From a virus: DNA of 42,294 nucleotides. The position numbers were made by a program, and so were the translations under genes. The notes beneath the pieces are model-generated. The model had not been told where the DNA came from and made no database searches. It saw only the letters and a program-made list of their open reading frames with translations. Below, one piece after another: positions 3,214 through 42,293 of the stretch (position 1 is its first letter; every line of letters starts with the position of its first letter). The DNA lies in UHGV virus genome UHGV-2027207. One strand, written 5' to 3'.

Positions 3214-3242
3214 ATAATATCATTATATAAAAAGAAAGTCAA
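3214..3242 (-). promoter_or_regulatory. sigma-A type promoter TTGACT-N17-TATTAT with a conserved leader (diverged copy of the module family)
   Basis: Seen on the reverse complement. The leader TAACTTATAG..AAAGGAGG resembles the other copies. Confidence 0.5.
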
Positions 3243-3268
3243 CTGTTTTAGTCAACTTTCTTTCAAAA
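3231..3268 (-). terminator. Rho-independent terminator overlapping the promoter -35
   Basis: Stem AAAGAAAG / CTTTCTTT with a U-rich tail on the minus strand. It follows the stop of 3272-3490. Confidence 0.5.
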
Positions 3269-3271
3269 ATA

Positions 3272-3490
3272 TTAAACTTTTTCTGAGGTGGTGATTGAAA
3301 CAATGCGATTCACGTTTAGTAGTACATTGTATCTATATGTTCCCATTCCAACTAGATCTTTTTTGTGTTGAATAACTAATGATTTGTCTCCAGATTGCAT
3401 TGCCTCTAAATATTTATCAATCAAATCTTCCTCAGTTTCTATCACAAATGGTTCTGTTGAATTGGTTGTGTAAATACTATATTTTTTCAT
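3272..3490 (-). CDS. hypothetical protein
   Basis: ORF. Confidence 0.45.
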   Translation of the reverse strand: MKKYSIYTTNSTEPFVIETEEDLIDKYLEAMQSGDKSLVIQHKKDLVGMGTYRYNVLLNVNRIVSITTSEKV

Positions 3491-4038
3491 TCTGTTTCCT
3501 CCTTTTCCACTGGCACAGCAAATGGCCAGTATCGTTCATCAATTGCTTTGATTTCAGCCTCCGTAAAAGTATTTTTCCATTTAGCCCCATAACGTTCTGT
3601 AGCCGCTGAGAAACACATATGAGTATCTCCGGGCATTAAAAAAGTTTGGATAAGGTAGTATGTTGCGCCTGGTATTTTTAGCTTCACATAATACAACGGC
3701 TCTTTCTCGATCTCGTAGCCGTCTATCCAAGCACGAGCAACTAATTCTTGATGGTCTGTTTCAAATAACCAATCTTCATCTTCTGTTATTCTTTTATATT
3801 GATCAACACCATACTTATACGAACCTGATAGACAACTAATTAAATCAGCTTTTTCTTTACATAGTTCTATCCATTCCGCCACAAACTTCGGCACAACCGG
3901 CTTCTGCGGTTCGTCTAGTTGTTCAATCAATTGTATAGCTTTAATAATTTTGACATATCTATCTTCTTCCCCAGTATAACATTCAGTACACCATGCACCT
4001 TTTTCTTTTAACTTTTCTTTAATTTCCTCTTTATTCAT
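3487..4038 (-). CDS. hypothetical replication-module protein (start refined to MNKEEIKE)
   Basis: AGGAGGA lies 8 nt before ATG 4038. Confidence 0.5.
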   Translation of the reverse strand: MNKEEIKEKLKEKGAWCTECYTGEEDRYVKIIKAIQLIEQLDEPQKPVVPKFVAEWIELCKEKADLISCLSGSYKYGVDQYKRITEDEDWLFETDHQELVARAWIDGYEIEKEPLYYVKLKIPGATYYLIQTFLMPGDTHMCFSAATERYGAKWKNTFTEAEIKAIDERYWPFAVPVEKEETE

Positions 4039-4051
4039 CACGTTCTTCCTC

Positions 4052-5638
4052 CTATTGTATATCATTGAAAATGTTCGCGTACTCTGTTCCTGCTAATGCG
4101 TTCATTAAATATGGTTTGATTGACTCATTGTCTCCGTTACGTGCAATCTTCAAACCAGTTAGCACACGTGCTTTACTTGTACGTTTTTCTTCAAATCCTT
4201 GCTTCAGCAGTAGTTCCTTCATGGTACGCCAATTCATTGATTTATTAATATTGTTTTCTTTTGTATATATATTAAAGATATTTTTTAGTAGGGTTAGGTT
4301 AACACTACCTTCTTTATCTTCAACAAGTACAGGTACTTCACTCAAAAACTCTTTAGATGGATCATTTGATTCAATATAGGCTTTCTTGAAGGCAATCATA
4401 TCTTCTGTCTCTGTGAATGGGTTTTCACCATTTGTACCAGCGTCTAAAATCTTTTTGAATTGCTGAATACAGAACCATGCAAATTTGCCTAGTTGTTCTT
4501 TTGACTCACGTTCTTCACGTTGTTTGTTAAACTCATTAATGCGTTCACGTGCTTCTGGTGTGTCAAGATTGGTGTTGAAATTTAAAATTAAAATACGTCT
4601 ATACCATCCATTGGTACGGTCATTAAATGCAGGTAGTTCGTTCATTGAAAACATCAATTTCGCATAGTTGGTAAAGCTAAATGCGTCCTTACCCTTTTTC
4701 TCAGCATGAACGGCATCAAGACCTCCTGAAAGCTTTTTCAGTGTTTCAGTACCCTTCACAAAGTTGGCGCTTGAATCCGCTTCAAAGTTCAATAGTTTAT
4801 GGTGTAGTGACGCTTTGTCAAAACGATTGTTTTTATCTGCTAAGCTGTCTAGACCAACTGCAGAACTGTTTTTGAAGCCAATCAATTTGTTCATAATAAA
4901 TCCACCTACGTAAGACTTACCATTTGAGCCATTACCTAAAAGGTACAATATTGATTGATATTTGTACTCTCTATAATACATATAACCAATATACTCATAT
5001 AATGTCTGCGCTTGATCTTTCAATAGATAATCAATCCATTGTTTAGCTAATAACTCATCTGTTTCATCTGTCTTAATCAATGGATATGGTAGTTGGAGTG
5101 TATGATAATCTTCTAATCTGGTTTCTCTAATATCATTGGTTTTAAAGTCATATGTGCCATTCTCAAAGGCGATAATGTTTGGATTAGGATTGTCACCTAG
5201 TGGGGCATGTTCACCACGTGTCATGGAGCGATTAGCCAATTCATTAGCTAGTTTCTTCATTTCTTTACGAATTTCATTCCCAAATTCTGGATTTCTAAAT
5301 TGTGGTGTAAATTTTGGCGCTAAAATGTTCTCAAAGTACCAATCAGCATATTTGTAACTACCTAGATTTACCTCAGACCAGATACGTGTGTCTGCATTAT
5401 ACACATATGGAGCGTTTAAGTTGGGGTGTGCATACACATAGGCTAACTGATTAAATTTATCAATAAATAATTCTTGTTGGATTTCAAATTTTGGCTGCGT
5501 ACCGTCTTTACCTCCGTAGTACATTCTTCCTAATTCTGAATTGAAATCTACAAACTCCTCACTTGGAAAGTGTTTATTTGAAACAGGTAACAACTCTTCA
5601 ACAGGTGCTGAATAGTCTATTTTCGTTAATTCATTCAT
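4052..5638 (-). CDS. D5/P4-family primase-helicase NTPase (VirE-like SF3 helicase)
   Basis: Walker A LLGNGSNGKS, Walker B-like LNFEAD, size 528 aa. RBS AGGGAGG. Confidence 0.65.
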   Translation of the reverse strand: MNELTKIDYSAPVEELLPVSNKHFPSEEFVDFNSELGRMYYGGKDGTQPKFEIQQELFIDKFNQLAYVYAHPNLNAPYVYNADTRIWSEVNLGSYKYADWYFENILAPKFTPQFRNPEFGNEIRKEMKKLANELANRSMTRGEHAPLGDNPNPNIIAFENGTYDFKTNDIRETRLEDYHTLQLPYPLIKTDETDELLAKQWIDYLLKDQAQTLYEYIGYMYYREYKYQSILYLLGNGSNGKSYVGGFIMNKLIGFKNSSAVGLDSLADKNNRFDKASLHHKLLNFEADSSANFVKGTETLKKLSGGLDAVHAEKKGKDAFSFTNYAKLMFSMNELPAFNDRTNGWYRRILILNFNTNLDTPEARERINEFNKQREERESKEQLGKFAWFCIQQFKKILDAGTNGENPFTETEDMIAFKKAYIESNDPSKEFLSEVPVLVEDKEGSVNLTLLKNIFNIYTKENNINKSMNWRTMKELLLKQGFEEKRTSKARVLTGLKIARNGDNESIKPYLMNALAGTEYANIFNDIQ

Positions 5639-5671
5639 TGTATTAAGTCCTCCCTCATATCTTATGCACTA

Positions 5672-5705
5672 AGTATAGCACAAATGAAAAGTTTGTGCTA
5701 TACTT
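5672..5705 (-). promoter_or_regulatory. TG-extended -10 promoter (TGCTATACT) embedded in a perfect 13-bp-arm palindrome
   Basis: AGTATAGCACAAA - 8 nt - TTTGTGCTATACT. The leader TAGTGCATAAG..AGGGAGG is conserved. Confidence 0.5.
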
Positions 5706-5710
5706 TTTAA

Positions 5711-5893
5711 CTAAAAATATTTAGCAATTGATTCCACTGAGTCTTTTACATCTAATTGAGTACCACCTAACAGTATGACAATAGTATATTCCCACGCTTT
5801 GCTGTGATAGAATGCTGCAATGTGATTGATGTTTACATATACTATGGTTTCATCAATTCTTGTTAATGTGATTAGTTCGTTCATTTTATTCAT
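5711..5893 (-). CDS. hypothetical protein (start probably MNKMNEL)
   Basis: ORF. The track Met1 is a TTG inside the upstream gene. Confidence 0.4.
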   Translation of the reverse strand: MNKMNELITLTRIDETIVYVNINHIAAFYHSKAWEYTIVILLGGTQLDVKDSVESIAKYF

Positions 5894-6065
5894 AATACAC
5901 CTCAAATTCTAATACTTGGTCTTTTTGAATATGGGTTTTTACTTTATTGGTATTATCATATAAAATTAAATAATCATCTTCAAAGTAATATTTATCAATG
6001 TAATTAAATTCAGTTACTTCTATACCTTCTCCAGCATTGTATTTTGTCACTAATACTTTAAACAT
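5886..6065 (-). CDS. hypothetical protein, 59 aa (MFKVLVTKYNAGEG...)
   Basis: Not in the track. AAGGAGGA lies 7 nt upstream of ATG 6065. Confidence 0.45.
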   Translation of the reverse strand: MFKVLVTKYNAGEGIEVTEFNYIDKYYFEDDYLILYDNTNKVKTHIQKDQVLEFEVYYE

Positions 6066-6079
6066 TATTTTTCCTCCTT

Positions 6080-6427
6080 TTATTTTGCAAAATATCCTTT
6101 TATGTATGCCAAGCGTTGTGCGTCATTGTCATACATGTTATAAGCTCTAAGAATTACTTTAGTAACTTCAAAGGGTGTGTACTTGCGTTCTACATCTTTT
6201 GATTTTAAATATTCCATAGTTGCTTTTTGAGGCGTCTCTTTTAGTTTAAATTGACAAGCAGTGTTCTTCAAATAATTAAGATACCATTTAGTGCCATTAT
6301 CATCAACTAAATATAGTTTGCCATGATTAGTTGATACTCCTTTATACTCCTTTCCTCTAGTCCACCATGGTTTATCTGACTTTGTACAAATATATGTTTG
6401 TCCTTCTTTTAAATGTAGTTTGTTCAT
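6080..6427 (-). CDS. hypothetical protein, paralog A of a tandem pair
   Basis: Shares N-terminus L.LKEGQTYICT..WWT.GKEYK and C-terminus YDND.QRLA..GYFAK with 6445-6756. Confidence 0.6.
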   Translation of the reverse strand: MNKLHLKEGQTYICTKSDKPWWTRGKEYKGVSTNHGKLYLVDDNGTKWYLNYLKNTACQFKLKETPQKATMEYLKSKDVERKYTPFEVTKVILRAYNMYDNDAQRLAYIKGYFAK

Positions 6428-6444
6428 TATTATTTGCCTCCTTT

Positions 6445-6756
6445 TTATTTTGCAAAATATCCTTCTAGAAAGGCTAATCGTTGTGAATCATTGTCATATT
6501 GTCTATATGCTTTGACAATTGCTTTGTTGATTTGTTGTTGTGTATACTTTGGTTCTGAATCATCTGTTTTTAATTTGAAGTCAGTTGACATATCAGATAC
6601 TTGAGGATTGAGCCACTTCTCACCGAAATCGTCTATGAGTGCAGGAGTTCCGTACTTAGTCAATACAACCTTATATTCTTTACCTACTGTCCACCATCTA
6701 TATTTTGTGTCAGTACAAATATATGTTTGTCCTTCTTTTAAATCTAAGTTGTTCAT
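6445..6756 (-). CDS. hypothetical protein, paralog B of a tandem pair
   Basis: See paralog A. The DNA at the 3' ends is also near-identical (TTTTATTTTGCAAAATATCCTT). Confidence 0.6.
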   Translation of the reverse strand: MNNLDLKEGQTYICTDTKYRWWTVGKEYKVVLTKYGTPALIDDFGEKWLNPQVSDMSTDFKLKTDDSEPKYTQQQINKAIVKAYRQYDNDSQRLAFLEGYFAK

Positions 6757-6791
6757 TATTATTTTCCTCCTATGTTATGATTACACTACTA

Positions 6792-6820
6792 AGTGTACGG
6801 TTTATTAGTTTATTTGTTAC
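6792..6820 (-). promoter_or_regulatory. weaker copy of the promoter module (GTAACA-N17-TACACT-TAGT..CATAAC..AGGAGG)
   Basis: Pattern match on the reverse complement. Confidence 0.3.
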
Positions 6821-6981
6821 TACCTATTGTAATTAGTTGCTTCCTTACAATCAATAATTTTATACTTCTTTTTGGGATATGTCAAGCGAAATTCATCAAT
6901 TGCTCCTCTCATAGTTTCAGCTAAATAGCTTAATTGAATAGTTTGCGTGTGTCTTTTTGCTAGAATAATAAATGTAGTCAT
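6820..6981 (-). CDS. hypothetical protein (start refined to MTTFIIL)
   Basis: AGGAGGA lies 8 nt upstream of ATG 6981. Confidence 0.4.
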   Translation of the reverse strand: MTTFIILAKRHTQTIQLSYLAETMRGAIDEFRLTYPKKKYKIIDCKEATNYNR

Positions 6982-7010
6982 TTTGTTTCCTCCTATTTGT
7001 ATGTTGATTG

Positions 7011-7334
7011 CTATTTCCATTCCTCCAATTGTTTTAGAATTGTGTTGTAGTGGTTTTGCTGCTTCTTATATGCTTCTGCTGCTTCATATAACCTTGTTTT
7101 CACGTCTAATTTTAACTTTTCTTGTGTGATACCATTATACTTTGTCCAAGTATCATAGTCCATAACTTTTACTTCCATTCCCAATAATGTTGTAGGTAAC
7201 TCGCTAGACAGTGGCATTTTCACGATATATGGATTTTGTGTGATTGGTACATTCAGTTTTACATTTGTTAAGTCTTCAAATAGTTCAGGTGTTACCATAA
7301 TATACTCTTCTGTTGCTAATAATAGTTTTTCCAT
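7011..7334 (-). CDS. hypothetical protein
   Basis: ORF. Confidence 0.45.
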   Translation of the reverse strand: MEKLLLATEEYIMVTPELFEDLTNVKLNVPITQNPYIVKMPLSSELPTTLLGMEVKVMDYDTWTKYNGITQEKLKLDVKTRLYEAAEAYKKQQNHYNTILKQLEEWK

Positions 7335-7346
7335 TGTTTCTTCCTC

Positions 7347-7577
7347 CTATTTAAGCAATTCTTCTTTCAGTTTATAAAACTCAACTTTATTATCTAAATA
7401 CATATGATAGTATGTTCCAACAATCAGACTTAGTTTACTCATAGCCTTTTGTCGTTCCGTTGTTAGAGGTGCTTGTTTTGCTAATTTCTCAAGATATTCA
7501 AGTAGTTCGCTTTCTTGACCTCCATTTTCAATAATTTCTATGATTTTCAACCTAAAGGTAATTGGTGTTAGACTCAT
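7347..7577 (-). CDS. hypothetical protein
   Basis: ORF. RBS AGGAGG. Confidence 0.45.
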   Translation of the reverse strand: MSLTPITFRLKIIEIIENGGQESELLEYLEKLAKQAPLTTERQKAMSKLSLIVGTYYHMYLDNKVEFYKLKEELLK

Positions 7578-7607
7578 TCTTTTTCCTCCTAGTTTTTAGT
7601 GTGATTA

Positions 7608-7823
7608 TTATTTCCACTCGTTCTTGGGTTCAATTAACATTACAATTAGTGCCACATTTAATGATACGGTAAACGCTACTATCACAATCAGTAGTGGTAT
7701 AGTTGTTAGTAGTGAGTATTGTAGTATGTCAATAATTAGTACAATCGCGACTAGATCAAGACATACCAGGAAGATAAGTAACAATGAAACCAGTGTTCTT
7801 AATATTTTATCTTCGTTTTTCAT
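7608..7823 (-). CDS. small membrane protein (two TM helices)
   Basis: Highly hydrophobic, LVSLLLIFLVCLDLVAIVLII... Confidence 0.45.
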   Translation of the reverse strand: MKNEDKILRTLVSLLLIFLVCLDLVAIVLIIDILQYSLLTTIPLLIVIVAFTVSLNVALIVMLIEPKNEWK

Positions 7824-7832
7824 TGTTTCCTC

Positions 7833-8159
7833 CTATTTTTGAATGTCCATCAACTTGATAATTTTCTGCAATAATTCTTCGTCTTTAGTGAGAAAATGAA
7901 AGCGTTCTTGGTGCAAGTGATCTAACCAATGAAACCGTTCATTCAACTCGTTTAACTCTTTGATTATGATACGCATTTCTTTCTCAGATTGTTCTATTTT
8001 GTTATGTGTCTGCCAGTAGTTTTGTGTTCCATGATTTGACATATTACCTGGTTCGTTCATCTTCATTAACCTTTCAGTTGCTTTATCATGAGACTTAGAG
8101 AGTCGCTTGAACTCTCTAAGTTGTATTTTCATGATATCAGTGTAGTACTTGTCTAGCAT
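7833..8159 (-). CDS. hypothetical protein
   Basis: ORF. Confidence 0.45.
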   Translation of the reverse strand: MLDKYYTDIMKIQLREFKRLSKSHDKATERLMKMNEPGNMSNHGTQNYWQTHNKIEQSEKEMRIIIKELNELNERFHWLDHLHQERFHFLTKDEELLQKIIKLMDIQK

Positions 8160-8383
8160 AGTAACATTCCTTTCAGTTTTGAGTAGTCAATGGCTAATTC
8201 AGCTAAAACTGTACTGTCATTTGTGTCAGCCCATTCTAAAATGGTTTCTATTTCGTTGTCTAACCAATTTGAAACTTTACTAAAATCTTCGTCACGTTCT
8301 TCAGCTTCTGCTGCTAAGTCAATAAAATCGCTGTAAAGCATGTCTATTTTCTTTTGTAGTTTGTTGTATTTTTCGTGTGTCAT
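8153..8383 (-). CDS. hypothetical protein (start refined to MTHEKYNK)
   Basis: GAGGAGGA lies 8 nt before ATG 8383. The track N-terminal extension is a translation of the conserved leader. Confidence 0.5.
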   Translation of the reverse strand: MTHEKYNKLQKKIDMLYSDFIDLAAEAEERDEDFSKVSNWLDNEIETILEWADTNDSTVLAELAIDYSKLKGMLLC

Positions 8384-8415
8384 ATTATACTTCCTCCTCT
8401 TTATCTTATGAACTA

Positions 8416-8444
8416 AGTATAGCATGATTAGAAACCAGTGTCAA
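8416..8444 (-). promoter_or_regulatory. consensus sigma-A promoter TTGACA-N17-TGCTATACT + leader TAGTTCATAAGATAAAGAGGAGG
   Basis: Exact -35 and -10 hexamers with a 17-bp spacer on the reverse complement. Confidence 0.7.
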
Positions 8445-8866
8445 CAGAAAAGATTAAAAAATGTCACTAATTTTGTGTTTTTGTCACTATATGACACTAA
8501 ATTGACGTTTTTAAAATCGCGGTATCCCTTGATACTCTAAGGATTAGACCAGTTTAATGACAAAATGACAAAAAAAGTACCATACTCTTTATATATACTA
8601 TAATACTACATTATAATGTAGTAACTTTATTTTTTAATTAATATATATAATATTTTGTCATTTTGTCATTATAAAAATAAGAATGTAGGTATATCAATGG
8701 ATACAGCGTTTTAAGGTGTCAAAATTAATGACAAAACGCTGACAAAAACAAGCGATTTAGTGACAAAATAACCATTTTAGGCTGACTTTTTGTCACTAAT
8801 AACTGGTTTACTTAACTCACACAGTATCCCTCATCTATGATATAATAGAAACAAAGAGGAGGAGAT
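8426..8866. promoter_or_regulatory. divergent control region with about 13 TGACAAAA/TTTTGTCA sites and a 115-bp perfect dyad (8556-8670) centred on palindrome TACTACATTATAATGTAGTA
   Basis: AATGACAAAATGACAAAA (8556-8573) is the exact reverse complement of 8653-8670. Central 20-bp palindrome at 8604-8623. AT-rich. Confidence 0.6.
8836..8849 (+). promoter_or_regulatory. TG-extended -10 promoter TATGATATAATAGA for the plus-arm early genes
   Basis: An identical 14-mer recurs at 10346-10359. Confidence 0.55.
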
Positions 8867-9467: not shown

Positions 9468-9626
9468 TTGCCATACATGTTTTGCAACCACGAAGGATGT
9501 AATGAAACAGTTAAGCTACCAGCACAATACTGTGCCAAACATCAACCAGCAAAGCTATCTGACTCAATCAAAGTAGAACAACCTACAGATAAGATTGTTG
9601 TTAAAGCAAAGAAGACTACTAAATAA
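9468..9626 (+). CDS. 52-aa Cys-rich (zinc-ribbon-like) protein, paralogous to the N-terminus of the adjacent HNH endonuclease
   Basis: Not in the track. AAAGGAGGTGG lies 5 nt before TTG 9468. CNHEGCNETVKLPAQYCAKH versus CAVSSCRNKVELPERYCEAH. Confidence 0.45.
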   Translation: MPYMFCNHEGCNETVKLPAQYCAKHQPAKLSDSIKVEQPTDKIVVKAKKTTK

Positions 9627-9669
9627 TAGTAGTCTTTTCTTATATAAAATAGAAGGAAGGAGTAACACA

Positions 9670-10596: not shown

Positions 10597-10598
10597 AC

Positions 10599-17448: not shown

Positions 17449-17449
17449 T

Positions 17450-32264: not shown

Positions 32265-32298
32265 TTTTTAAATGGGTAATCAACACTACTCTTCCTCT

Positions 32299-32520: not shown

Positions 32521-32521
32521 T

Positions 32522-33241: not shown

Positions 33242-33274
33242 ATTCCTTATTTCCTCCTTTAACTTTATGAATTA

Positions 33275-33303
33275 AGTATAACACCTCAGTTAAGAGGTGT
33301 CAA
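33275..33303 (-). promoter_or_regulatory. consensus promoter TTGACA-N17-TGTTATACT with a palindromic spacer (ACACCTC..GAGGTGT)
   Basis: The -35 overlaps the HNH stop. Same module as 42265-42293. Confidence 0.65.
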
Positions 33304-33836: not shown

Positions 33837-36057
33837 TTCTAATCCTCCATTCTATACCTAACCACAGTTCCAGTGTATCTTCCACTTGGTTTATATAGTA
33901 CTCTTTATCAACATCATCAATAGTTATCCATCCTTCACCAATGGCTTCATTGTCAATAGCATAATACTCAGGTGCATTAGGCAAGCCTTTAGTGTAAGAA
34001 TCATTTCCAACAATTGTAGTACCTTCCTCTTCAATAACAGCTCCACGTTTTACTTTAAATATTTCAACAGCTTTATTAGGGTCTTTAATTGCAAAAACAC
34101 GATTCACTTTTTGTGCTTTCCGTTCATTACCATAAACATCACGTACAATAGTATCATCAAAAGTATATCCTGTTTTAGTAATCATTTGGAATTGACGTAG
34201 TTCATCACATTCGTTGATAAACTCTTTATAATCTTTACCAGCAACTACATAGTTAATGAACGCATTTGAAACAATCGCTTTAGAAACTTTCAATCCATTT
34301 GTTAGACCAATAGCGCCTTTAAACTTCACTTTACCGTCTGATGTAACTGCCAAGTAATTATTGACGTCCTTCTGGAAAATGGCTTTAAAAGGATCATCAT
34401 CTAAGGTGTAACCTGTTCGTTTCATCCAATCATTTGCGATCTCATCAATGGCGTTCTCATCTTCTTCACTAAATGGGATATAATAATGAGCGTCTGTATT
34501 TGATTGAATGATAGTAGCATGGTCTTCAATCTTTTCTAGTAAATCCCACATTGCCATTTGACCTGTGATACAAACAAGTAATCGCATGCGTGGATCATAC
34601 AATTTGTTAAACTCAGCTCCCATTGCTCCATATTTAGTATTTAGAGGTAGTTTATAACCATTAATTAATAGCTTGGTTGGAATTTTTACCCCTTTAATTT
34701 CAGTAAATTCCTTATTTGAGTATTTAGCCTCCATACGTTCATCAAGTAACATTTGATAAATATGCCGTTTGTCTTCTGGAATGTTTCGTGATAAGTAGTC
34801 AAATAAAACCATCGTATTAGGATAAAGTGAACCTACGTCACGTGCGTGGAAGTTACCTACATGAATAAATGACTCTTTTGCACCATGGATACCACCTACT
34901 CCCAAAACCTCTGTTACGTCTCTACGTGGCACATCTAATGAAATACTTGCATGACCTTTATCATTAGCTTCAAACTCATTTTTCATAAATGCCTGACGAA
35001 TGGTCTCTGACTCAATTGTGAACCCTTCTGGTAATTCATACTTATCTAATTCGTCACCTCTGTCAGGTGTCTTTTCAGCACCTAATAGTTCAGCAGTCAA
35101 GTTTGCGTTTGTCATTGATAGAGCCATTTTATCTAAACCAAAGTATAGTGCAATTGCAGCCTTAGCTACTAGCATCCCTATGTTTTGTTCAAAACGTTTT
35201 TCAGTAGCTAACACGTCATTTTTACAATATAGCTCATTCAACACTTGCTCTTCTTCAGTTAATTCTCTGTCTAAATCAAAGTCTACTTCAGTTTCTTTAA
35301 TATTAATACCCATGAAAGCACTATGTTCTTTCAAACTAAAACCTCTATTGTCTTGATACAAATCCATTCCAAAAAGTGGTGTTTTCTTAGTATCAAACAT
35401 TTTATATACTAACGCTCTATCGTCACTTTCAATGATTGCTTTTGACACATGAAATGGGTTTTTACCTTGTAAATAAGCACGCATGACATTTGAGTCATAT
35501 GAGTGTGAGTTATAACCTACAAACAAGGAATCTCTATTTGCTAGATAGAACTTGCGTAAAGCATCTAAATCATTATGAATAACTGTCCATTCTTTAGTGA
35601 AGTAATCTCTAAAGACAAATAAATTATCTTTTTTAAATACTTCAATGTCATAAATATAAATCGTTTGATTCGTTAATGCTTTGTTTGGTTTTTCAGGTAA
35701 GTTGTCAACAACTCCTCCTTTCTGATTGATGGTTACATTTGGAAAACCATTGTTGTATTTTAGAGTAATATTTAACTCCTGGCCTACTTGAATATCTTTC
35801 CATATTTCCCAATCTTGTTTGCGGAACTTCATAATATAAAATGTAGCGTCACGCCCATCATTTGTGCTACGTACTTTGATCTCTTTCATTTTTTTACCTT
35901 TTGCAGATAAGCGTTCCTCTGCTTTAATCACTACCACTTGATGAACGCCTTCTACTAGTGGATCAAAACTTTTTCCATTACCTGCAAGTGCTGCAAATAT
36001 TTCTAACAATTTACTTGCTAACTTCTCAGCACCTTGAAATTCTGCAATATTTTTCAT
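33766..36057 (-). CDS. family B DNA polymerase (3'-5' exonuclease + polymerase)
   Basis: Exo I YDIE; motif A DVGSLYPNTM; motif B K...N..YG; motif C NTDA. Confidence 0.8.
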   Translation of the reverse strand: MKNIAEFQGAEKLASKLLEIFAALAGNGKSFDPLVEGVHQVVVIKAEERLSAKGKKMKEIKVRSTNDGRDATFYIMKFRKQDWEIWKDIQVGQELNITLKYNNGFPNVTINQKGGVVDNLPEKPNKALTNQTIYIYDIEVFKKDNLFVFRDYFTKEWTVIHNDLDALRKFYLANRDSLFVGYNSHSYDSNVMRAYLQGKNPFHVSKAIIESDDRALVYKMFDTKKTPLFGMDLYQDNRGFSLKEHSAFMGINIKETEVDFDLDRELTEEEQVLNELYCKNDVLATEKRFEQNIGMLVAKAAIALYFGLDKMALSMTNANLTAELLGAEKTPDRGDELDKYELPEGFTIESETIRQAFMKNEFEANDKGHASISLDVPRRDVTEVLGVGGIHGAKESFIHVGNFHARDVGSLYPNTMVLFDYLSRNIPEDKRHIYQMLLDERMEAKYSNKEFTEIKGVKIPTKLLINGYKLPLNTKYGAMGAEFNKLYDPRMRLLVCITGQMAMWDLLEKIEDHATIIQSNTDAHYYIPFSEEDENAIDEIANDWMKRTGYTLDDDPFKAIFQKDVNNYLAVTSDGKVKFKGAIGLTNGLKVSKAIVSNAFINYVVAGKDYKEFINECDELRQFQMITKTGYTFDDTIVRDVYGNERKAQKVNRVFAIKDPNKAVEIFKVKRGAVIEEEGTTIVGNDSYTKGLPNAPEYYAIDNEAIGEGWITIDDVDKEYYINQVEDTLELWLGIEWRIRIEEAHRKFKKLGYTFPEVKNYIE

Positions 36058-36089
36058 GTGTTACTTCCTCTCTCGTTTGAATATAATAT

Positions 36090-36118
36090 AGTATATTACA
36101 TCTACTGCTAATACACAA
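36090..36118 (-). promoter_or_regulatory. possible promoter TTGTGT-N17-TATACT for the polymerase operon
   Basis: Pattern only; lacks the conserved leader. Confidence 0.3.
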
Positions 36119-36158
36119 GTGCAAAATATAAACTCTATGAAACTCTCTATTGTGTGTC

Positions 36159-36365
36159 TCATTGGAACATTCTAAACTGTCTTGGATGACCTTGTGTTTG
36201 CATATACAAGATATTATCTAACTTATAAACAGCAATAGTTTTCTTCTTGTTTGAGATCATCATTTGCGTTGGATCAATCTTTATATATACCTCATTAAAA
36301 TGTCGATTAATGATGACACCATCTTCATCTTTGACTGTTAAAATTAAGTTGTCTACTAACAGCAT
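36159..36365 (-). CDS. hypothetical protein
   Basis: ORF. Confidence 0.4.
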   Translation of the reverse strand: MLLVDNLILTVKDEDGVIINRHFNEVYIKIDPTQMMISNKKKTIAVYKLDNILYMQTQGHPRQFRMFQ

Positions 36366-36379
36366 TTTAAAGTTCCTCC

Positions 36380-36628
36380 TTATACATAGAACGTTATTCC
36401 ATCTAGAGCAATACCATCAGTGGTTATAACATTTGGACTCAATGCTGTTACTTCTAAATCCAGTAATCCATTTTTTAATTCAATCCACTCATCATATAAA
36501 TAGTATACTTTACTAGCACGTTCAAATAGTAACGTTTCTTCTGTTTTATTGTCTACAATCTCAATATAATACTTATCATCATGGTCAGGCATATTATCTA
36601 GTAATTCAATAATGTTTGCAATTTTCAT
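36380..36628 (-). CDS. hypothetical protein (start refined to MKIANIIEL); N-terminal paralog of 36664-36876
   Basis: GAGGAGGA upstream. N-termini MKIANIIELLDN versus MNVGNIIELKRDN. Confidence 0.5.
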   Translation of the reverse strand: MKIANIIELLDNMPDHDDKYYIEIVDNKTEETLLFERASKVYYLYDEWIELKNGLLDLEVTALSPNVITTDGIALDGITFYV

Positions 36629-36660
36629 TTTAATATTCCTCCTCTTTATCTTATGAGTTA

Positions 36661-36689
36661 ATCTTACCACGCAAAATTCACCTTGTCAA
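36661..36689 (-). promoter_or_regulatory. promoter module copy TTGACA-N17-TAAGAT + leader TAACTCATAAGATAAAGAGGAGG
   Basis: Lies inside the 3' end of the upstream ORF. The leader is near-identical to the one at 8396-8415. Confidence 0.45.
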
Positions 36690-36876
36690 TAGTTTTTGTT
36701 GCTAATATTAAATCTTTTTCTAGGAAGGCTTCTGTTGAGCCACTGAACAACTTGACCATTATTTCATATCCATCAACTGGTTTATAAAGCTTGTACAGAA
36801 TCACTCCTTTGTCACCTTTACAGCCTAATCCGTTTAAATTATCTCGTTTTAATTCTATTATATTTCCAACATTCAT
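36664..36876 (-). CDS. hypothetical protein
   Basis: RBS AGGAGG. Confidence 0.5.
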   Translation of the reverse strand: MNVGNIIELKRDNLNGLGCKGDKGVILYKLYKPVDGYEIMVKLFSGSTEAFLEKDLILATKTIDKVNFAW

Positions 36877-36906
36877 GATTATTTCCTCCTATTAACTTAT
36901 GTACTA

Positions 36907-36935
36907 AGTATAGCATGATAAAAGAAAAGAGTCAA
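36907..36935 (-). promoter_or_regulatory. promoter module TTGACT-N17-TGCTATACT + leader TAGTACATAAG..AGGAGG
   Basis: Pattern match with an exact 17-bp spacer. Confidence 0.6.
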
Positions 36936-36955
36936 CCATTTAGGCTAACTCTTTT
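36925..36955 (-). terminator. terminator-like hairpin after 36965-37657
   Basis: AAAAGAGT..ACTCTTTT with U-rich flanks. Confidence 0.35.
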
Positions 36956-36964
36956 TAATTTATT

Positions 36965-37657
36965 TTAAAATGGTAACTCTTCTTCTGATACTGATTCTTT
37001 TTGGTCATATGGGTCTAATGGTTGTGCTTCTAACCATCCATATGGTGATTTAGGGTCTAACATATTTTTATTCACAGTGCAGTCTACAACCATTCCAATT
37101 GCCATATCTGCTGTATCCCAGGTTACATTTACGTCTTCAAATAATTCATTAAATCTCGCTTTTGCTTTTGCAAGTTTAGCTTGGTTAGGAATAAATTTGT
37201 TCAATTTCTCAATATATACTCCTGAGTTGAAGTTGAAAGAGTAGTATTTACCTTCATGTTCTACAACTACCGCACGTCCTTTGGCACTGTCTTTAATTTC
37301 AACAATTGGAACTTGTTTTAACCGTTTTAGTGAGACCAGTGGCTTCTCAATCTTTTTGAATGATGTACCTTCTTCAAAGTAGGCTTTACCTGTTTCTTCA
37401 TCTACATACATTTCTAATTCTTTATCTTCAAGATTATCAAACGATCCACCTAACATTTCTAAGGCTTTAGCTAATCGTTCTTTAGCTTTTGTATCTTCAT
37501 CTGTGAACTCTCTCCATGTTTTAGAGTCTTTATCATATGATTTTTTGAATACTGCAGCGTCATAGATAGCGCTATAATCTTCGCTGGCTACCTGTAATTT
37601 CACACTAATATCATCTTCCTCTGCGCTAACAATAATTACTTTTTTCAATTCTGACAT
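36965..37657 (-). CDS. SSB-like / DUF2815-like protein candidate with an acidic C-terminal tip (SEEELPF)
   Basis: The C-terminal tail resembles the SSB DDDIPF partner-binding tip. Sits beside a DUF1351-like gene. Has its own promoter. Confidence 0.35.
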   Translation of the reverse strand: MSELKKVIIVSAEEDDISVKLQVASEDYSAIYDAAVFKKSYDKDSKTWREFTDEDTKAKERLAKALEMLGGSFDNLEDKELEMYVDEETGKAYFEEGTSFKKIEKPLVSLKRLKQVPIVEIKDSAKGRAVVVEHEGKYYSFNFNSGVYIEKLNKFIPNQAKLAKAKARFNELFEDVNVTWDTADMAIGMVVDCTVNKNMLDPKSPYGWLEAQPLDPYDQKESVSEEELPF

Positions 37658-37702
37658 TTTAATTCCTCCAATTAATTTGTTTTATTCTCGTTTACAAAAT
37701 CT

Positions 37703-37713
37703 ATTATAACATA
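37703..37713 (-). promoter_or_regulatory. TG-extended -10 promoter TATGTTATAATAGAT on the minus strand (identical 15-mer to the TMP promoter)
   Basis: Reverse complement of 37699-37713. Confidence 0.45.
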
Positions 37714-37733
37714 TATTCCCTTACTTGTGTATA

Positions 37734-38543
37734 TTATTTTAAAACCTCATACTCAATTTTAATTTTCTTCAAGTCTTCTTTCTTCACCTTGATTGTTACA
37801 TACTCAACGGGTTTAAGAGCCTCCTGTTTTTGCTCGTTTCCAGTGATGATAACAATGTCAGGCACTTTGGTTTCTTTTACTCTAGCTTGTTCTTTTTCAA
37901 GACGTTCTTTCTCTGCGATCATACTTGCATAGTCTAAAATAGCCTCTTGCATGTTAAAGCCGTTTTTAGAGTAGGCAATTAAAATGGCTGAACGATCATC
38001 CTTGTCAGGATAGGTTTGTTTTAATTGTTCATAATCATTCTTGAATGTATCAAAATAAGAAACCACCGCTTCACGTATCTTTTTGGCACTTGTAGCCTTG
38101 TTGGTTATAAGTGTTGGATTTTTGGCAATAAACTTATCAAAAGTAAGCCACTGTGGAGCGTTATATGACTTCTGATATTTTTTAAATAAGTCTTTGATTT
38201 GTAATTTCCTTTGTTCCTGTTCACGTGCAGTAATCTCCTTAATTTGAGCATTGATATGCCCCTCTCCTTCACCCAGGACTTCCTTCAATAGTTTAATCTT
38301 TTCATTGAGTTCGTCATAAGGGGTCATGATTTGCCGTTTGACAGCAAGACGTTCTGAATCTAATTTTTTAATCTCTTTACGAATTTCAGCAAGAAGTTTT
38401 TTATTTTCTATAATGTTTTCCTCATTCACTTCTTGCTCTTTCATTCTTTCAGCTAACCTCCTTACATCTTCAAGTGTTTTTTCGTAACCAATAAACTGTA
38501 TTTCATGTTTACCTGTAGATTTAATTGATAGTTCAAATGCCAT
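37734..38543 (-). CDS. DUF1351-like coiled-coil protein (recombination module)
   Basis: About 270 aa, K/E-rich coiled coil. Confidence 0.4.
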   Translation of the reverse strand: MAFELSIKSTGKHEIQFIGYEKTLEDVRRLAERMKEQEVNEENIIENKKLLAEIRKEIKKLDSERLAVKRQIMTPYDELNEKIKLLKEVLGEGEGHINAQIKEITAREQEQRKLQIKDLFKKYQKSYNAPQWLTFDKFIAKNPTLITNKATSAKKIREAVVSYFDTFKNDYEQLKQTYPDKDDRSAILIAYSKNGFNMQEAILDYASMIAEKERLEKEQARVKETKVPDIVIITGNEQKQEALKPVEYVTIKVKKEDLKKIKIEYEVLK

Positions 38544-38700
38544 TCTCTTCATCCTTCATTTTAAGACGTTTATATTCTACAGCAAAGATTTCATCAATTG
38601 TATAATTGATTTTCAAAAGCCATTTGTATTTTTCAATTAGATCAAACAACTGGTTTTCAGTATAACCATAGTCTAATTTTAAAAGTGTTTTATAGTTCAT
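38536..38700 (-). CDS. 54-aa hypothetical protein (MNYKTLLKLDYGYTENQ...)
   Basis: Not in the track. ATGA overlaps with both neighbours. Confidence 0.4.
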
Positions 38701-38921
38701 ACTCTATCACCTTCCAATTCAATTGTCATTCCTTCATCTCCATCTCCTAGGGTTGGTGTAATCCATGTAACAACTCGTTCTCCATACTTACCAACAAGCT
38801 CATCTATTGTATATCTAGGTGTGTCATAATAAAACCTCGTATCATTTCCAAATATAACTTCTATTAACCCATTATCCTCTAGCAGATGTGCTACATCATT
38901 CACTGTAAGTTTCTTAGTCAT
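38697..38921 (-). CDS. hypothetical protein
   Basis: RBS GGAGGAG. Confidence 0.45.
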   Translation of the reverse strand: MTKKLTVNDVAHLLEDNGLIEVIFGNDTRFYYDTPRYTIDELVGKYGERVVTWITPTLGDGDEGMTIELEGDRV

Positions 38922-38922
38922 T

Positions 38923-39150
38923 TTATAACTCCTCCTTCAGTAACTCTAAATCATCATCACTTAAGCGATCAATTAATTCAATGTCTTCTTCACGTACATC
39001 CTCAAAGCGTGCTGCGAATTCTCCTGTTTCAACCAAGACAAGAATGTTTCCAAACTTGTCTACATGCTGCACAGTACCTTCATCCCCTTGTGCTGCGTGC
39101 ATTCCATAATTATTTGTGAATCTAACTAAATCTCCATATTGGTATTTCAT
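38923..39150 (-). CDS. hypothetical protein (start refined to MKYQYGDLVRF)
   Basis: GAGGAGGA 7 nt upstream of ATG 39150. Confidence 0.45.
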   Translation of the reverse strand: MKYQYGDLVRFTNNYGMHAAQGDEGTVQHVDKFGNILVLVETGEFAARFEDVREEDIELIDRLSDDDLELLKEEL

Positions 39151-39185
39151 TTTTCTTCCTCCTCTATATTTATGTTTTAATTGTA

Positions 39186-39950
39186 TCATCTTATTAGCCA
39201 TTTGTCAACATCCTTTTTGGTAATTTTTCCTTTTGATTTTTTAATCAACCCCTCAAATGTTCTGTATGTTTCTGACTGGTGTAGCTCTACATTAATCATA
39301 TCATGTTTACCAAATTTGTCAACAAATAACTCCCGATCTGTTGTACTTAAGTGGCGATATGAACCTGAGCTGAACACATCATATCCAGTGTGTGTTTTCG
39401 TTGATTCATAAAACTCAATTACTTTAGGGTCATAATTAGCTTCTAAAAGAATAATATCAAGTTTTAACTCATTTGTCAATAGATAAGTTTCATAATCTAC
39501 TAAAGTACTCAAATCAGTAGCATAAATTAAAGTTTGTGAAGGACTCTCTAGAATGAAACCATGTGTTTCTGTGTAGTCTTCAGCTGCACCATGATAATTC
39601 TGAAGTGTTGTGAATTTTATATCTCCAATTTGAAACTGGAAATCATCTTTGAATGTTATGTCTACACTACTAAGTTTGCGTTTTAGTAGTTCATTGTTAA
39701 CAGTTTCGTTAGATAATATTTTAATGTGGGGAAAGTTTTCTCTAATCTTTTTGTATGTTGTATATACAAGGTGATCCTGGTGTTTATGGGTAATAAATAC
39801 AAATTGTTTATCATATAAATATGGCTCAATATATTTGTATGGCTTTCCAATATCAATTAGGAACCCAATGTTCTCATAATAAATTGACGCTGAGTTTCCT
39901 TTTGAACCGCTAAAATGTATTTTAAAAGTGAATGACGTATTCAAATACAT
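39186..39950 (-). CDS. MBL-fold metallo-hydrolase (putative nuclease)
   Basis: HKHQDH (HxHxDH) motif; N-terminal FSGSKGNS. Confidence 0.7.
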   Translation of the reverse strand: MYLNTSFTFKIHFSGSKGNSASIYYENIGFLIDIGKPYKYIEPYLYDKQFVFITHKHQDHLVYTTYKKIRENFPHIKILSNETVNNELLKRKLSSVDITFKDDFQFQIGDIKFTTLQNYHGAAEDYTETHGFILESPSQTLIYATDLSTLVDYETYLLTNELKLDIILLEANYDPKVIEFYESTKTHTGYDVFSSGSYRHLSTTDRELFVDKFGKHDMINVELHQSETYRTFEGLIKKSKGKITKKDVDKWLIR

Positions 39951-40458
39951 AACCTCCTGTTTGTTTTAATTTACCTTTTAAAACTTTTGTAATACTTGAG
40001 GGGTCTAATCCCAATTGTCTACCACATTCTTTAGTACTATAAAAAGTTTTGGTTTCACCAGTTTTGAGATTAGTTGTTAGAATTGGGATACTTAGCGTTT
40101 TACTCATTCTTTCATTATGCGTTCCATAATTAACATTTTCCTTTGCTGTAACCCATTCCAGATTTGAAACCCTGTTGTTTGTTTTATCCTCGTCAATATG
40201 ATTTACCTGTGGTTTATTATCAGGGTTTAGGATAAACGCCTGAGCTACTAGACGATGTACTCTAAATGTTTTTAATTTTGACTTTATTGATAACGTTACT
40301 ATTGGATATCCCCAATCATTCAGATAATTCTTTAAAACCTTACCTTTACGTACTCTACCTAACTTATCTATACTATCATAACTTCTAACTCTTCCTAAAT
40401 TACTAACTTGATAAATACCTTCATACCCTTTAATATCTTTCCAAATTTCTCCAATCAT
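39922..40458 (-). CDS. HNH homing endonuclease (NUMOD4 + HNH_3)
   Basis: MIGEIWKDIKGYEGIYQVSNLGRV...HRLVAQAF...NHIDEDKTNN..NLEW. Confidence 0.85.
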   Translation of the reverse strand: MIGEIWKDIKGYEGIYQVSNLGRVRSYDSIDKLGRVRKGKVLKNYLNDWGYPIVTLSIKSKLKTFRVHRLVAQAFILNPDNKPQVNHIDEDKTNNRVSNLEWVTAKENVNYGTHNERMSKTLSIPILTTNLKTGETKTFYSTKECGRQLGLDPSSITKVLKGKLKQTGGYVFEYVIHF

Positions 40459-40919
40459 TTATTCCTGTCCTCCCACCGATTTCCTTCTAATTCCCAAAGC
40501 TCTCTACCAAGCTTATTAGCTTCTTTCCAGTTTTGTTGCTCACATGCATCTCCAATAGCTACAATTAACGCATGACGCTTAGGCTCTACTTTCTTTCTGA
40601 AAGGACGTGCCACACGCTCTACCCCTTCTTTTGGATTAATAGCGTAACCAATATTAGTGTAGTGACTATTTTGTACATTACCATCTTTAAAATATAAATA
40701 TCCTAAGTTGTGTTCATTTTTAACAAACATATCTGCTACTAATTGAGAGACGTAGAATTTACGTGACTTCGTATGTGAGCCTTCAAGTACTACATACATT
40801 TTTCCATTCTTTGGATCAACTAATTCAGTTTCATATCGTTCTTTGTCTAAATGAAACACATGACCTTCATCCGTTATGGCATACATATCGTAAGGCTCAT
40901 TTAATGGTTCAAATCTCAT
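40455..40919 (-). CDS. divergent NUMOD4/HNH-like protein, possibly degenerate
   Basis: YDMYAITDEGHVF and KFYVSQLVADMFV echo NUMOD4 and the HRLVAQAF motif. ATGA overlap with the neighbouring HNH. Confidence 0.4.
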   Translation of the reverse strand: MRFEPLNEPYDMYAITDEGHVFHLDKERYETELVDPKNGKMYVVLEGSHTKSRKFYVSQLVADMFVKNEHNLGYLYFKDGNVQNSHYTNIGYAINPKEGVERVARPFRKKVEPKRHALIVAIGDACEQQNWKEANKLGRELWELEGNRWEDRNK

Positions 40920-41148
40920 TATATTTTTCCTCCAGTTTGATTAATTGATCTACATAGACTTTCACTTTCTTTAAATCTTCAACGCCATTCTTTTGTTTAT
41001 AACGTTTTAAATATTTAATTGTATTTCCTAAGTAGAAACCTGTGACTTGTTCGTATGTCAATAGGTCATCTTCAAAAATATCAAAGAGTTGTTTTCCTGA
41101 ATTGGTTTTGTAACGTGTTGTATTTTCTAATTCTTCAACTGTAGTCAT
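40909..41148 (-). CDS. DUF3310-like phage protein
   Basis: GNTIKYLKRYKQKNGVEDLKK..VYVDQLI motif. Confidence 0.5.
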   Translation of the reverse strand: MTTVEELENTTRYKTNSGKQLFDIFEDDLLTYEQVTGFYLGNTIKYLKRYKQKNGVEDLKKVKVYVDQLIKLEEKYNEI

Positions 41149-41179
41149 TATATCAAATCCTCTCTTTGTTTATATATTT

Positions 41180-41208
41180 ATACTATCATATAGTATCTTA
41201 CTTGTCAA
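41180..41208 (-). promoter_or_regulatory. promoter TTGACA-N17-TAGTAT
   Basis: Exact -35 and a plausible -10 upstream of 40909-41148. Confidence 0.4.
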
Positions 41209-41224
41209 CACAAAACTTTTATTT

Positions 41225-41299
41225 TATGCTATAATAAAGTATAGGGATTCCTCCTCCCTCCTCTCGTTAAGACTAGCCAAGTGGCTAGTCTTTTTGTTT
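41225..41299 (+). ncRNA. candidate ~55-nt C-rich sRNA: TG-extended -10 (TATGCTATAAT, 41225-41235) to a strong terminator (41269-41299)
   Basis: Transcribed sequence AGGGAUUCCUCCUCCCUCCUCUCG + 10-bp stem AAGACUAGCC/GGCUAGUCUU + U-tract. No ORF. Confidence 0.35.
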
Positions 41300-41485
41300 A
41301 TAGTTTTGAATATCTGATAAATATCCAAATACCTCGCGCGCTGTATGAAAATCAACTCTATGAGTATCTTGTGGTTCATTAACATGAAAAACCTCTACAT
41401 AATATTTTAACTCAAATCTGGATTGACTAACTACTGTCGCACAGTATCCATTTGTAAACTCTGTGCTAAATAATTGTTTATCCAT
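41285..41485 (-). CDS. hypothetical protein
   Basis: ORF. Confidence 0.4.
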   Translation of the reverse strand: MDKQLFSTEFTNGYCATVVSQSRFELKYYVEVFHVNEPQDTHRVDFHTAREVFGYLSDIQNYKQKD

Positions 41486-42234
41486 CAGTTGTCCTCCATT
41501 CTACGTAGTTCACGCTTACGCACACTTTCATATGTTTGCATTACTTCATCCTCTGACAGCGGTGGAACACACCCTATCTGATTAACATACAGAGACCACA
41601 CACGTACCTCATCATGATTCAGTCCTGTAGCAAATAATTTACCAATTTGGGTGGTTAGCCAGATATTTCTTCCTCCTTCCCCACTACCTGCAATTATATC
41701 ACCTAATAGGGTTGCTGTCCACTTTCTCTCTCTCTTCTTATTCTTTTTTGTAATTGTTTTATCTGTGAACATCTCTAACCATTTCTCAGGTAGTTCTGCC
41801 ATTTCTACATCACGTGCTACCTCATAATATGTTCCATCAATTTTGCTAGGTGGTGCTAATATTATTCTGCCGTGTGTTTGAAAATCAACACCTTTTAGTT
41901 GAGGATGATTTTGAATGAATTGAGTGTCATTGTATTTCTCATCAAGTTTAAAATAATAATGGTAACCTCCACTTGGTGTCTTAACAACCTTAGTTTTTGG
42001 TAACTCAATGCCATAAGTATCCAAGAACTCTTTTAAGTTACCAAGACCATCTACTCCATTATGGTTGTCAATGTCAATGACTGCAATACCACTTGTTTTA
42101 CCAGTAGCATATGCAACATTTCCTCCTTCTGCTATCCATTGGTCAACTATTTTATCATCTTCTCCTCCAAATGCTCCTGCGACTAATGGTGCTTTACCAT
42201 TTTTCTTAATGCGTAGTCTTTTAATTTCTTTCAA
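41485..42234 (-). CDS. bifunctional primase-polymerase (AEP Prim-Pol domain)
   Basis: IAVIDIDNH...GYHYYF pattern. TTG start with AGGAGGA RBS. Confidence 0.65.
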   Translation of the reverse strand: MKEIKRLRIKKNGKAPLVAGAFGGEDDKIVDQWIAEGGNVAYATGKTSGIAVIDIDNHNGVDGLGNLKEFLDTYGIELPKTKVVKTPSGGYHYYFKLDEKYNDTQFIQNHPQLKGVDFQTHGRIILAPPSKIDGTYYEVARDVEMAELPEKWLEMFTDKTITKKNKKRERKWTATLLGDIIAGSGEGGRNIWLTTQIGKLFATGLNHDEVRVWSLYVNQIGCVPPLSEDEVMQTYESVRKRELRRMEDN

Positions 42235-42264
42235 AATAATATCCTCCTCTTAACTTATGAACTA

Positions 42265-42293
42265 AGTATAACACCCCAATTAAGGGGCGTCAA
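42265..42293 (-). promoter_or_regulatory. promoter TTGACG-N17-TGTTATACT + leader TAGTTCATAAG..AGGAGG with a palindromic spacer (ACACCCC..GGGGCGT)
   Basis: Near-duplicate of the 33275-33303 module. Confidence 0.6.

Follow-up and report, generated by a model that had tools for sequence, protein, structure and literature searches.

Repeated early-type promoter cassettes with a conserved YATAAR block downstream of the -10 box in an Enterococcus siphophage genome

The virus genome UHGV-2027207, analysed here as a single stretch of 42,294 nt (the window), carries on its minus strand a family of near-identical promoter-like repeats in which conservation continues past the -10 box. The question is what this downstream conservation is for. 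The original prediction saw in it a leader that might bind a phage regulator or act as an RNA-level control element. Our analysis favours, with moderate confidence, another answer: the repeats would be early promoters of a strictly lytic Enterococcus siphophage, expression cassettes read by sigma-A, in which a YATAAR block (Y, pyrimidine; R, purine) serves as start-site and initial-transcribed element. The conservation past the -10 box would then consist of this element and a ribosome-binding site, and would be neither a leader RNA nor a demonstrated operator.

The repeat family proposed before, with at least seven copies, is real, and its copy list needs revision. Five copies are near-identical (8444, 5677, 42293, 36935, 33303) and two are degenerate (36689, 3242). 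Two modules, 41208 and 39208, and a weaker candidate, 3025, all overlooked before, came out of an unbiased scan for TTGA[CT]N, 16-18 nt and TAnnnT, while the site at 6792-6820, described as a weaker copy, is removed: its -10 reads TACACT, a -35 is missing, and YATAAR does not stand at the right offset. A -35 of the form TTGAC[A/T/G] is found in 9 of 10 modules, the exception being P5677, and the -35/-10 spacer is exactly 17 nt in every copy having a -35. TGN stands directly before the -10 box in 9 of 10 modules, and the -10 hexamers (TATACT, TAAGAT, TATTAT, TAGTAT, TACAAT and TATGAT) have A at position 2 and T at position 6. The complete arrangement TTGAC[A/T/G]-17-TGN-TATACT-TA[G/A]T[T/A]CATAA[G/A]-4-6 nt-AGGAGG, which had been ascribed to each copy, is present in full at 8416-8444, 36907-36935, 42265-42293 and 33275-33303, but not in the others. 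At 36661-36689 and 3214-3242 the module is there with a deviant -10 (TAAGAT and TATTAT, respectively) and a degenerate downstream part, which reads TAACTTATAG in the latter; 5672-5700 has TGCTATACT and TAGTGCATAAG but no TTGAC, and a perfect 14-bp inverted repeat instead. The strict 17-mer TATACTTANTNCATAAG, allowing one mismatch at most, has 5 matches in the window against 0.03 expected, and the general pattern TTGAC-N15-TGN-TANNNT-N5-YATAAR, at the same tolerance, has 9 against 0.01 expected, one of which (39479-39440) lies within a gene and is doubtful; all matches of both patterns are on the minus strand.

Every module lies on the minus strand, upstream of a gene in the same orientation with a Shine-Dalgarno (SD) sequence and a start codon, the latter 21-27 nt past the predicted +1. 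The sequence supports the view of them as extended -10 promoters of the sigma-A type that run in the direction of the early and replication genes. The claim that they drive every minus-strand operon is approximately right, as about 10 modules divide about 18 kb of early genes. It was also correctly recognised that the N-terminal extensions MLYLVHKIKRR and VVRLTHKIKRR of two open reading frames (ORFs) come from translating promoter and leader (MLYLVHKIKRRKYN-M and VVRLTHKIKRRNIK-M); the genes themselves start at ATG 8383 and ATG 36628, where AGGAGG precedes each start codon.

The motif search in related phages, which had been proposed as a check, was run on the early regions of 24 relatives, taken from IMG/VR with the helicase as anchor. 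Every TTGAC-N18-TAnnnT with an SD and a start codon within 45 nt was taken as a candidate, and candidates were chosen by these features alone. This gave 199 unique promoter candidates, 8-15 per phage, in which the YATAAR block recurs and to which the following figures refer. Information peaks at an A-rich tract at -45 to -40 resembling an upstream promoter (UP) element, at G(-36), at the -35, at TG (T(-15) 85%, G(-14) 80%) and at the -10, whose fifth position is C or A. Then comes a separate block at -1 to +5: Y (C 53%, T 42%), A 91%, T 89%, A 87%, A 83% and R (G 48%, A 46%). The spacer carries about 0 bit, the discriminator merely 0.2-0.5 bit, and positions +6 to +11 are weak before the SD is reached, so that YATAAR is the only block conserved beyond the -10 and upstream of the SD. 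The earlier claim that conservation extends past the -10 is thereby borne out, and the 11-mer described at that time is, judged by these candidates, a local and best-conserved version of a family-wide 6-nt element.

The position of this block is informative. YATAR stands exactly 5 nt past the -10 in 158 of the 199 candidates (79%; chance 1% per offset) and at another offset in 5, while the start of the SD core varies from +4 to +23. Since the block is fixed to the -10 and its distance to the SD varies, it is tied to the geometry of RNA polymerase and not to the ribosome site. Per-site divergence within promoter groups, which are over-inclusive single-linkage clusters on spacer and upstream similarity, is 0.19 at -1 to +5, compared with 0.36 in the spacer, 0.36 in the discriminator and 0.45 at +6 to +11. 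Spacers differ completely among the copies of the window and the block after the -10 is retained. Unrelated spacers beside a conserved block rule out simple recent duplication, which had been named as the outcome that would deprive the conservation of meaning.

In Enterococcus faecalis the -10 box ends 5-9 bp before transcription start sites (TSSs) mapped from 5' triphosphate ends, and a recognisable -35 is found in merely about 21% of host promoters (PMC4408782). In the Listeria phage CKA15 the early motif obtained by ONT-cappable-seq consists of TTGACTT and ATGxTATACTTAA at -16 to about -4, with an AT-rich UP element (PMC12282133). When both spacings are applied here, TAGTTC would be the untranscribed discriminator, CA would be -1/+1, and the A of CATAAG, seven nt past the -10, is the predicted +1. 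CAT is the textbook start triplet. The predicted 5' untranslated regions (5'UTRs) of 21-27 nt are purine-rich and essentially unstructured (minimum free energy 0 to -3 kcal/mol per 60 nt), and AGGAGG begins at +10 to +13 in most copies. No Rfam family was found in the window at the gathering threshold, and no structured conserved element was found between TSS and SD, considering Rfam matches, folding energy, which is weak, and positions +6 to +11, which are poorly conserved. A short unstructured 5'UTR with no Rfam family makes an RNA-level control element in the leader unlikely. What had been called the leader would resolve into a discriminator, a CAT-type start site, this 5'UTR and an SD. In the literature we found no paper on promoters or transcript maps for Efemquintavirus or Efquatrovirus, the group to which the window belongs.

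In the mechanism that we favour, unmodified host sigma-A RNA polymerase would read the early promoters right after infection. The cassette would offer it, in order, the A-rich UP-like tract, a -35 TTGACA, a 17-nt spacer ending in TG, a TATACT-like -10, a 5-nt AT-rich discriminator and Y(-1)A(+1)T(+2)AAR, an extended CAT triplet, followed by about 10 nt of unstructured purine-rich leader, a strong SD and the start codon. The YATAAR block would fix initiation on the A seven nt past the -10, and the A/T-rich initial transcript could let these tightly bound, near-consensus promoters clear quickly, as for PN25 of coliphage T5. The transcript would begin with pppAU and have its SD within about 10-13 nt of the 5' end, which may additionally favour mRNA stability and translation. 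Roughly half of the cassettes seem fused to a hairpin over the -35 or spacer, and those at 3242 and 36935, which are terminator-like, would insulate successive short early units. The design is a tidy but ordinary phage arrangement and no new kind of control element.

A second, late class of promoter is present in the window, with an extended -10 TG(A/T/G)TATA(A/T)TA (TGNTATAWTA) and no TTGACA. Its copies lie directly upstream of late genes on the plus strand, at 8838, 10348, 11449, 11675, 13686 and 20248, and the motif has 8 matches in all against 2.66 expected. The YATAAR block was found in none of these 6 late-type promoters and in none of 15 unique late-type sites in the relatives. As a separate observation, ACACAG lies upstream of three late copies, 13 nt before TG at 8838 and 10348 and 18 nt before it at 20248, and a fourth copy (11449) has TCACAA at 13 nt; the upstream ACACAG might be the target of a putative late activator.

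The block is widely distributed. By BLAST, 153 Enterococcus phage records, among them that of the Efquatrovirus LM99, match a 34-nt query that spans TG, -10, block and SD, mostly at 2-5 sites each; matches in Staphylococcus, Listeria and Bacillus phages had E-values of 0.01-0.4 and were not taken as evidence. TATACT-TAGTTCATAAG-GTTAAGGGAGG is found also in the unrelated 18-kb podophage Ef6.3, and variants of the block recur several times in an unclassified phage type whose sole database match is 87 bp shared with a 91-kb Enterococcus phage. A 17-mer scan of IMG/VR gave mostly chance matches, those with a -35 being the informative subset. The 40-nt pattern TTGAC-N18-TATAMT-TANTNCATAAG, with 20 bases set in -35, -10 and block, was matched in bacterial genomes, and among the matches listed nearly all are in Bacillota, upstream of tRNA genes, T-box-like leaders and ordinary genes; examples are a tRNA promoter conserved across about 10 Gemella genomes and T-box-like leader promoters in uncultured Bacilli. 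Because of these chromosomal matches the start-site block is not phage-specific, and the breadth of its distribution argues for a property of polymerase and start site over a phage-specific factor.

Other explanations for the block have to be weighed against this. It may act at the RNA level, where a fixed pppAUAAR 5' end and a 5'-proximal strong SD would guard early mRNA against 5'-dependent decay (RppH, RNase J1) and maximise translation. The short, purine-rich, unstructured 5'UTRs with an early AGGAGG are in line with this, and so is position +2, where 89% of the 199 promoters have U and only 6% have G. Bacillus subtilis RppH prefers G at position 2, and Hue, Cohen and Bechhofer reportedly described in 1995 an SD-like polypurine element of phage SP82 as a 5' stabiliser. 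But the distance of the block to the -10 is fixed and that to the SD is not, the block occurs also in copies with long leaders, structure and Rfam families are missing, and late mRNAs of the same phage manage without it. We consider an RNA-level action rather unlikely; it would be compatible with the start-site explanation and not exclusive of it. A protein target is the other possibility raised by the original prediction. In a fuller form of this idea, YATAAR with the overlapping -10 could be an operator where, at the turn from early to late transcription, a phage or host protein shuts the early promoters down (or activates them). The block belongs to the early class and is missing from late promoters, the strongest copies have a 5-bp dyad, ACTTA-N5-TAAGT, across -10 and start site, and most small early ORFs are without known function and could hide a regulator. 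The palindromic operator was rejected on a covariation test, in which dyad complementarity equals the expectation under independence (-8/+5, 49 vs 48.1; -6/+3, 105 vs 105.8; -5/+2, 126 vs 127.6), and a 4-bp dyad is intact in only 38 of 199 promoters. PHROG annotates no repressor, activator, sigma or anti-sigma factor in the 40 ORFs scanned, six conserved bases are few for a specific operator, and a block found in unrelated phages and in T5 PN25 would require a shared factor. An operator is thus, in our judgement, very unlikely. A sigma-dependent pause element, a -10-like TAAGAT at +2 to +7, was also considered and dropped, positions +6 and +7 carrying 0.03 and 0.33 bit.

It is also conceivable that the downstream conservation has no function, and that the cassettes are recombination linkers, like the PeSL cassettes of T4-type phages, homogenised by exchange within or between co-infecting phages. 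Hairpin, UP tract, promoter and SD among small unknown ORFs match the PeSL description (PMC2839356, PMC4122927), an unrelated podophage infecting the same host has an almost identical cassette, and of the homology breakpoints against the 24 relatives 26% are no more than 60 nt away from a module, where random positions would give 6.3% (4-fold). With other gene junctions as the reference, no significant excess is left (8.7 vs 6.0 loci per junction, p = 0.06), and the idea of PeSL-style recombination hot spots was not adopted. Spacers are unrelated and -1 to +5 is kept, so homogenisation would need tracts of 6 nt, and the exact offset in 79% of promoters also speaks against it. We give this idea little credence. 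Somewhat different from an operator is the reading that YATAAR at -1 to +5 is a dedicated early-class element, a handle through which early transcription would be timed or shut off, either by a factor of host or phage or by the ATP/UTP status of the cell. Being common to unrelated Enterococcus phages and absent from their late promoters, the block may not be a passive start-site optimum; we hold such a role to be quite unlikely. The start-site explanation has points that weigh against it as well. The +1 positions are placed from spacing only. The C at position 5 of the -10 (TATACT, not TATAAT) and the preference in the discriminator are left unaccounted for. Absence of the block from late promoters means that it is not a universal requirement of the host polymerase; this absence fits an escape aid for tightly bound promoters and equally fits an early-specific regulatory target. 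The host-promoter matches, at least 120, are a lower bound that gives no enrichment figure. Finally, the hairpins at 33303, 42293 and 5677 are without a proper U-tract, and their terminator role is uncertain.

Strong hairpins, of -14 to -20 kcal/mol, overlap five of the about 10 modules (Table 1). At P3242 and P36935 the 3' arm holds the -35 and the T-rich spacer is the tail, giving the look of an intrinsic terminator; a consensus terminator scan picked up 36935 and not 3242. The inverted repeats noticed before in the spacers of P33303 and P42293 are real and belong to 9-bp stems that bridge the -35 to TGT and contain G-T pairs (G-U in RNA). At P5677 a 14-bp stem ends in the -10 and takes the place of the -35.

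Table 1. Promoter modules of the window, with predicted transcription starts and the gene starts behind them
Module	Span	Strand	-35, spacer and hairpin	-10	Downstream sequence	Predicted +1	Gene start
P3025 (weaker candidate)	2967..3025	minus	TTGACA-17, no TG (-35 to -10 3025-2997)	TATGAT	GATTA TACAAA, SD		ATG 2969
P3242 (degenerate)	3182..3264	minus	15-bp terminator-like hairpin 3264-3230; TTGACT 3242-3237 in 3' arm; T-run spacer is tail	TATTAT 3219-3214	TAACTTATAGA	3207	ATG 3184
P5677	5636..5705	minus	no -35; 14-bp perfect hairpin 5705-5671, -20.5 kcal/mol	extended -10 TGCTATACT, 5677-5672, is hairpin 3' arm	TAGTGCATAAG, SD GGGAGG	5665	ATG 5638 (DNA primase gene)
6792..6820 (not a member)	6792..6820	minus	no -35, no TG	TACACT	no YATAAR at offset 5
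P8444	8381..8444	minus	TTGACA 8444-8439, TGC	TATACT 8421-8416	discriminator TAGTTC; CATAAG 8410-8405; 26-nt 5'UTR with AGGAGG	A 8409	ATG 8383
P33303	33239..33303	minus	TTGACA; 9-bp hairpin 33302-33279 (TGACACCTC / GAGGTGTTA, one G-T included)	TATACT 33280-33275	TAATTCATAAAG	33268	ATG 33241 (DNA methyltransferase gene)
P36689	36626..36689	minus	TTGACA-17 (TGG)	TAAGAT	TAACTCATAAG (degenerate)	36654	ATG 36628
P36935	36874..36955	minus	13-bp terminator-like hairpin 36955-36925, -19.9 kcal/mol; TTGACT in 3' arm; CTTTTCTTTT spacer is tail	TATACT 36912-36907	TAGTACATAAG	36900	ATG 36876
P39208	39148..39208	minus	TTGACA-17 (TGA)	TACAAT	TAAAA CATAAA	39173	ATG 39150
P41208	41146..41208	minus	TTGACA-17 (TGA)	TAGTAT	AAATA TATAAA	41173	ATG 41148
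P42293	42232..42293, cut by window end	minus	TTGACG; 9-bp hairpin from -35 to TGT, 42292-42267	TATACT 42270-42265	TAGTTCATAAG	42258	TTG 42234 (primase-polymerase gene)

Some modules deserve a remark. P8444 is the first module beside the divergent early/late intergenic region. The -35 of P39208 sits in the 3' end of a metal-hydrolase gene. Behind P3025 lies an ORF at 2877-2969 on the minus strand, 30 amino acids long (MTFMTIGLLFIG...), which has its own SD and is below usual ORF cut-offs; in relatives a start with the same MTFM N-terminus has a module in front. The record itself opens inside a promoter, as the -35 of P42293 starts at 42293. In relatives the equivalent module follows the helicase gene, whose end is window position 23, and this order shows that the window is a circular permutation cut within a promoter.

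The window is the essentially complete 42-kb genome of a lytic Enterococcus siphophage of the Efemquintavirus/Efquatrovirus group. In a megablast search of 32000-42294 against phage genomes, 98 of 99 matching records were named Enterococcus phage and the remaining one was spelled 'Enteroccous'. The best matches were EF36P2 and EF36P3 (E. gallinarum), with 92% identity across 92% of the query, followed by IME-EFm1, IME-EFm5, RG1, Aramis and dArtagnan; RG1 and IME-EFm5 belong to the genus Efemquintavirus (PMC12572221). Judged by ORFs and strand composition, genes are encoded on the minus strand at 1-8444 and 32522-42294 and on the plus strand at 8867-32509. PHROG scans show the minus-strand part to be the early/replication region, with helicase, primase, primase-polymerase, DNA polymerase, methyltransferase and four HNH endonucleases, together with many small ORFs without known function. 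In these scans, covering 37 early and 3 late-strand ORFs, no integrase, repressor, activator, sigma, anti-sigma or antiterminator was annotated, and the sole helix-turn-helix (HTH) type matches, to 'HTH DNA binding protein', were secondary ones at the C-terminal ends of two HNH endonucleases.

Five genes like HNH homing endonucleases are present, on the minus strand at 1326-1850, 33303-33836, 39925-40458 and 40458-40919 and on the plus strand at 9595-10062. Their borders coincide with several homology breakpoints against the relatives (e.g. 1846, 1321, 40466), and one of them sits between the DNA polymerase gene and module P33303. The sequence suggests that these genes are mobile insertions. 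The divergent intergenic region at 8445-8866, which separates the first early promoter from the first late gene, contains RTGACAAAA eight times exactly and twice with one mismatch, in both orientations and densest at 8479-8796; elsewhere in the 42 kb there is one exact copy only. The same cluster, with 8-10 copies in 400 nt, recurs in relatives of the Efemquintavirus type and is missing from those of the Efquatrovirus type. Its appearance is that of an iteron array, which may be an origin of replication or, in this early/late switch region, an array bound by a regulator.

The analysis corrects the annotation of this phage group, with about 10 early transcription units, true gene starts behind the leader and a separate late class with an extended -10 only. 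It also gives a compact, naturally optimised Enterococcus expression cassette (UP, -35, TG, -10, CATAAG, about 10 nt and AGGAGG), potentially useful in therapeutic phage engineering. The early-specific block at an exact offset offers a clean case, which could reveal in what way very strong promoters of a Gram-positive host are tuned by the initial transcribed sequence. The YATAAR finding opens no new kind of regulation.

Several known systems resemble the cassettes in part. T5 PN25, with TATAAT-AGATTC-ATAAATTTGAGAGAGGAG, compares with TATACT-TAGTTC-ATAAGTTAAGAGGAGG in the window, and both have TTCATAA around the start, an A/T-rich initial transcribed sequence and, about 10 nt further downstream, a polypurine SD. 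In work of Kammerer et al. in 1986 and Hsu et al. in 2006, the transcribed part of PN25 is reported to add to promoter strength and escape. PN25 belongs, however, to an unrelated phage in another host phylum and has a weaker -35; functional equivalence is an analogy. A likeness is seen also in CKA15, a lytic P100-like phage, which shares with the window the UP element, a -35 TTGAC(T/A), TGnTATACT-TA(A/G) and a late class with an extended -10 only, its late motif being TGYTATAWTA (PMC12282133). Unlike the window, it is a large myovirus of another host genus and encodes predicted sigma and anti-sigma factors, none of which was found in the window ORFs scanned; its published motif stops at about -4, and YATAAR is undescribed there.

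The modules fit the composition of the PeSL cassettes of T4-type phages, with a strong early promoter, a stable stem-loop (5 modules), an A-rich tract at -45 to -40 and an SD in every copy. Both lie between small, mostly unknown early genes, and in PeSL cassettes a terminator or attenuator stem-loop is combined with an AT-rich tract, an early promoter of the sigma-70 consensus type, and an SD and start codon (Arbiol et al. 2010, PMC2839356; Comeau et al. 2014, PMC4122927). The PeSL stem-loop lies upstream of the promoter, whereas in the window the hairpin overlaps the -35, spacer or -10. PeSL cassettes come from hyperplastic regions of T4-type myoviruses and the modules from a siphophage of a Gram-positive host with no sequence homology to them, so the likeness is an analogy only. 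In the record of the Efquatrovirus vB_EfaS_LM99 (MH355583), orthologous 29-bp segments from -35 to -10 are annotated as 'promoter, discovered using phiSITE'; a 12-kb stretch has 10 of these annotations on its early strand and one on the opposite strand. This annotation is a prediction and omits the start-site block, the leader, the hairpins and the late class. The promoters as such were thus already predicted in LM99, and the early-specific YATAAR block at its exact offset, which appears undescribed, is a modest addition to them.

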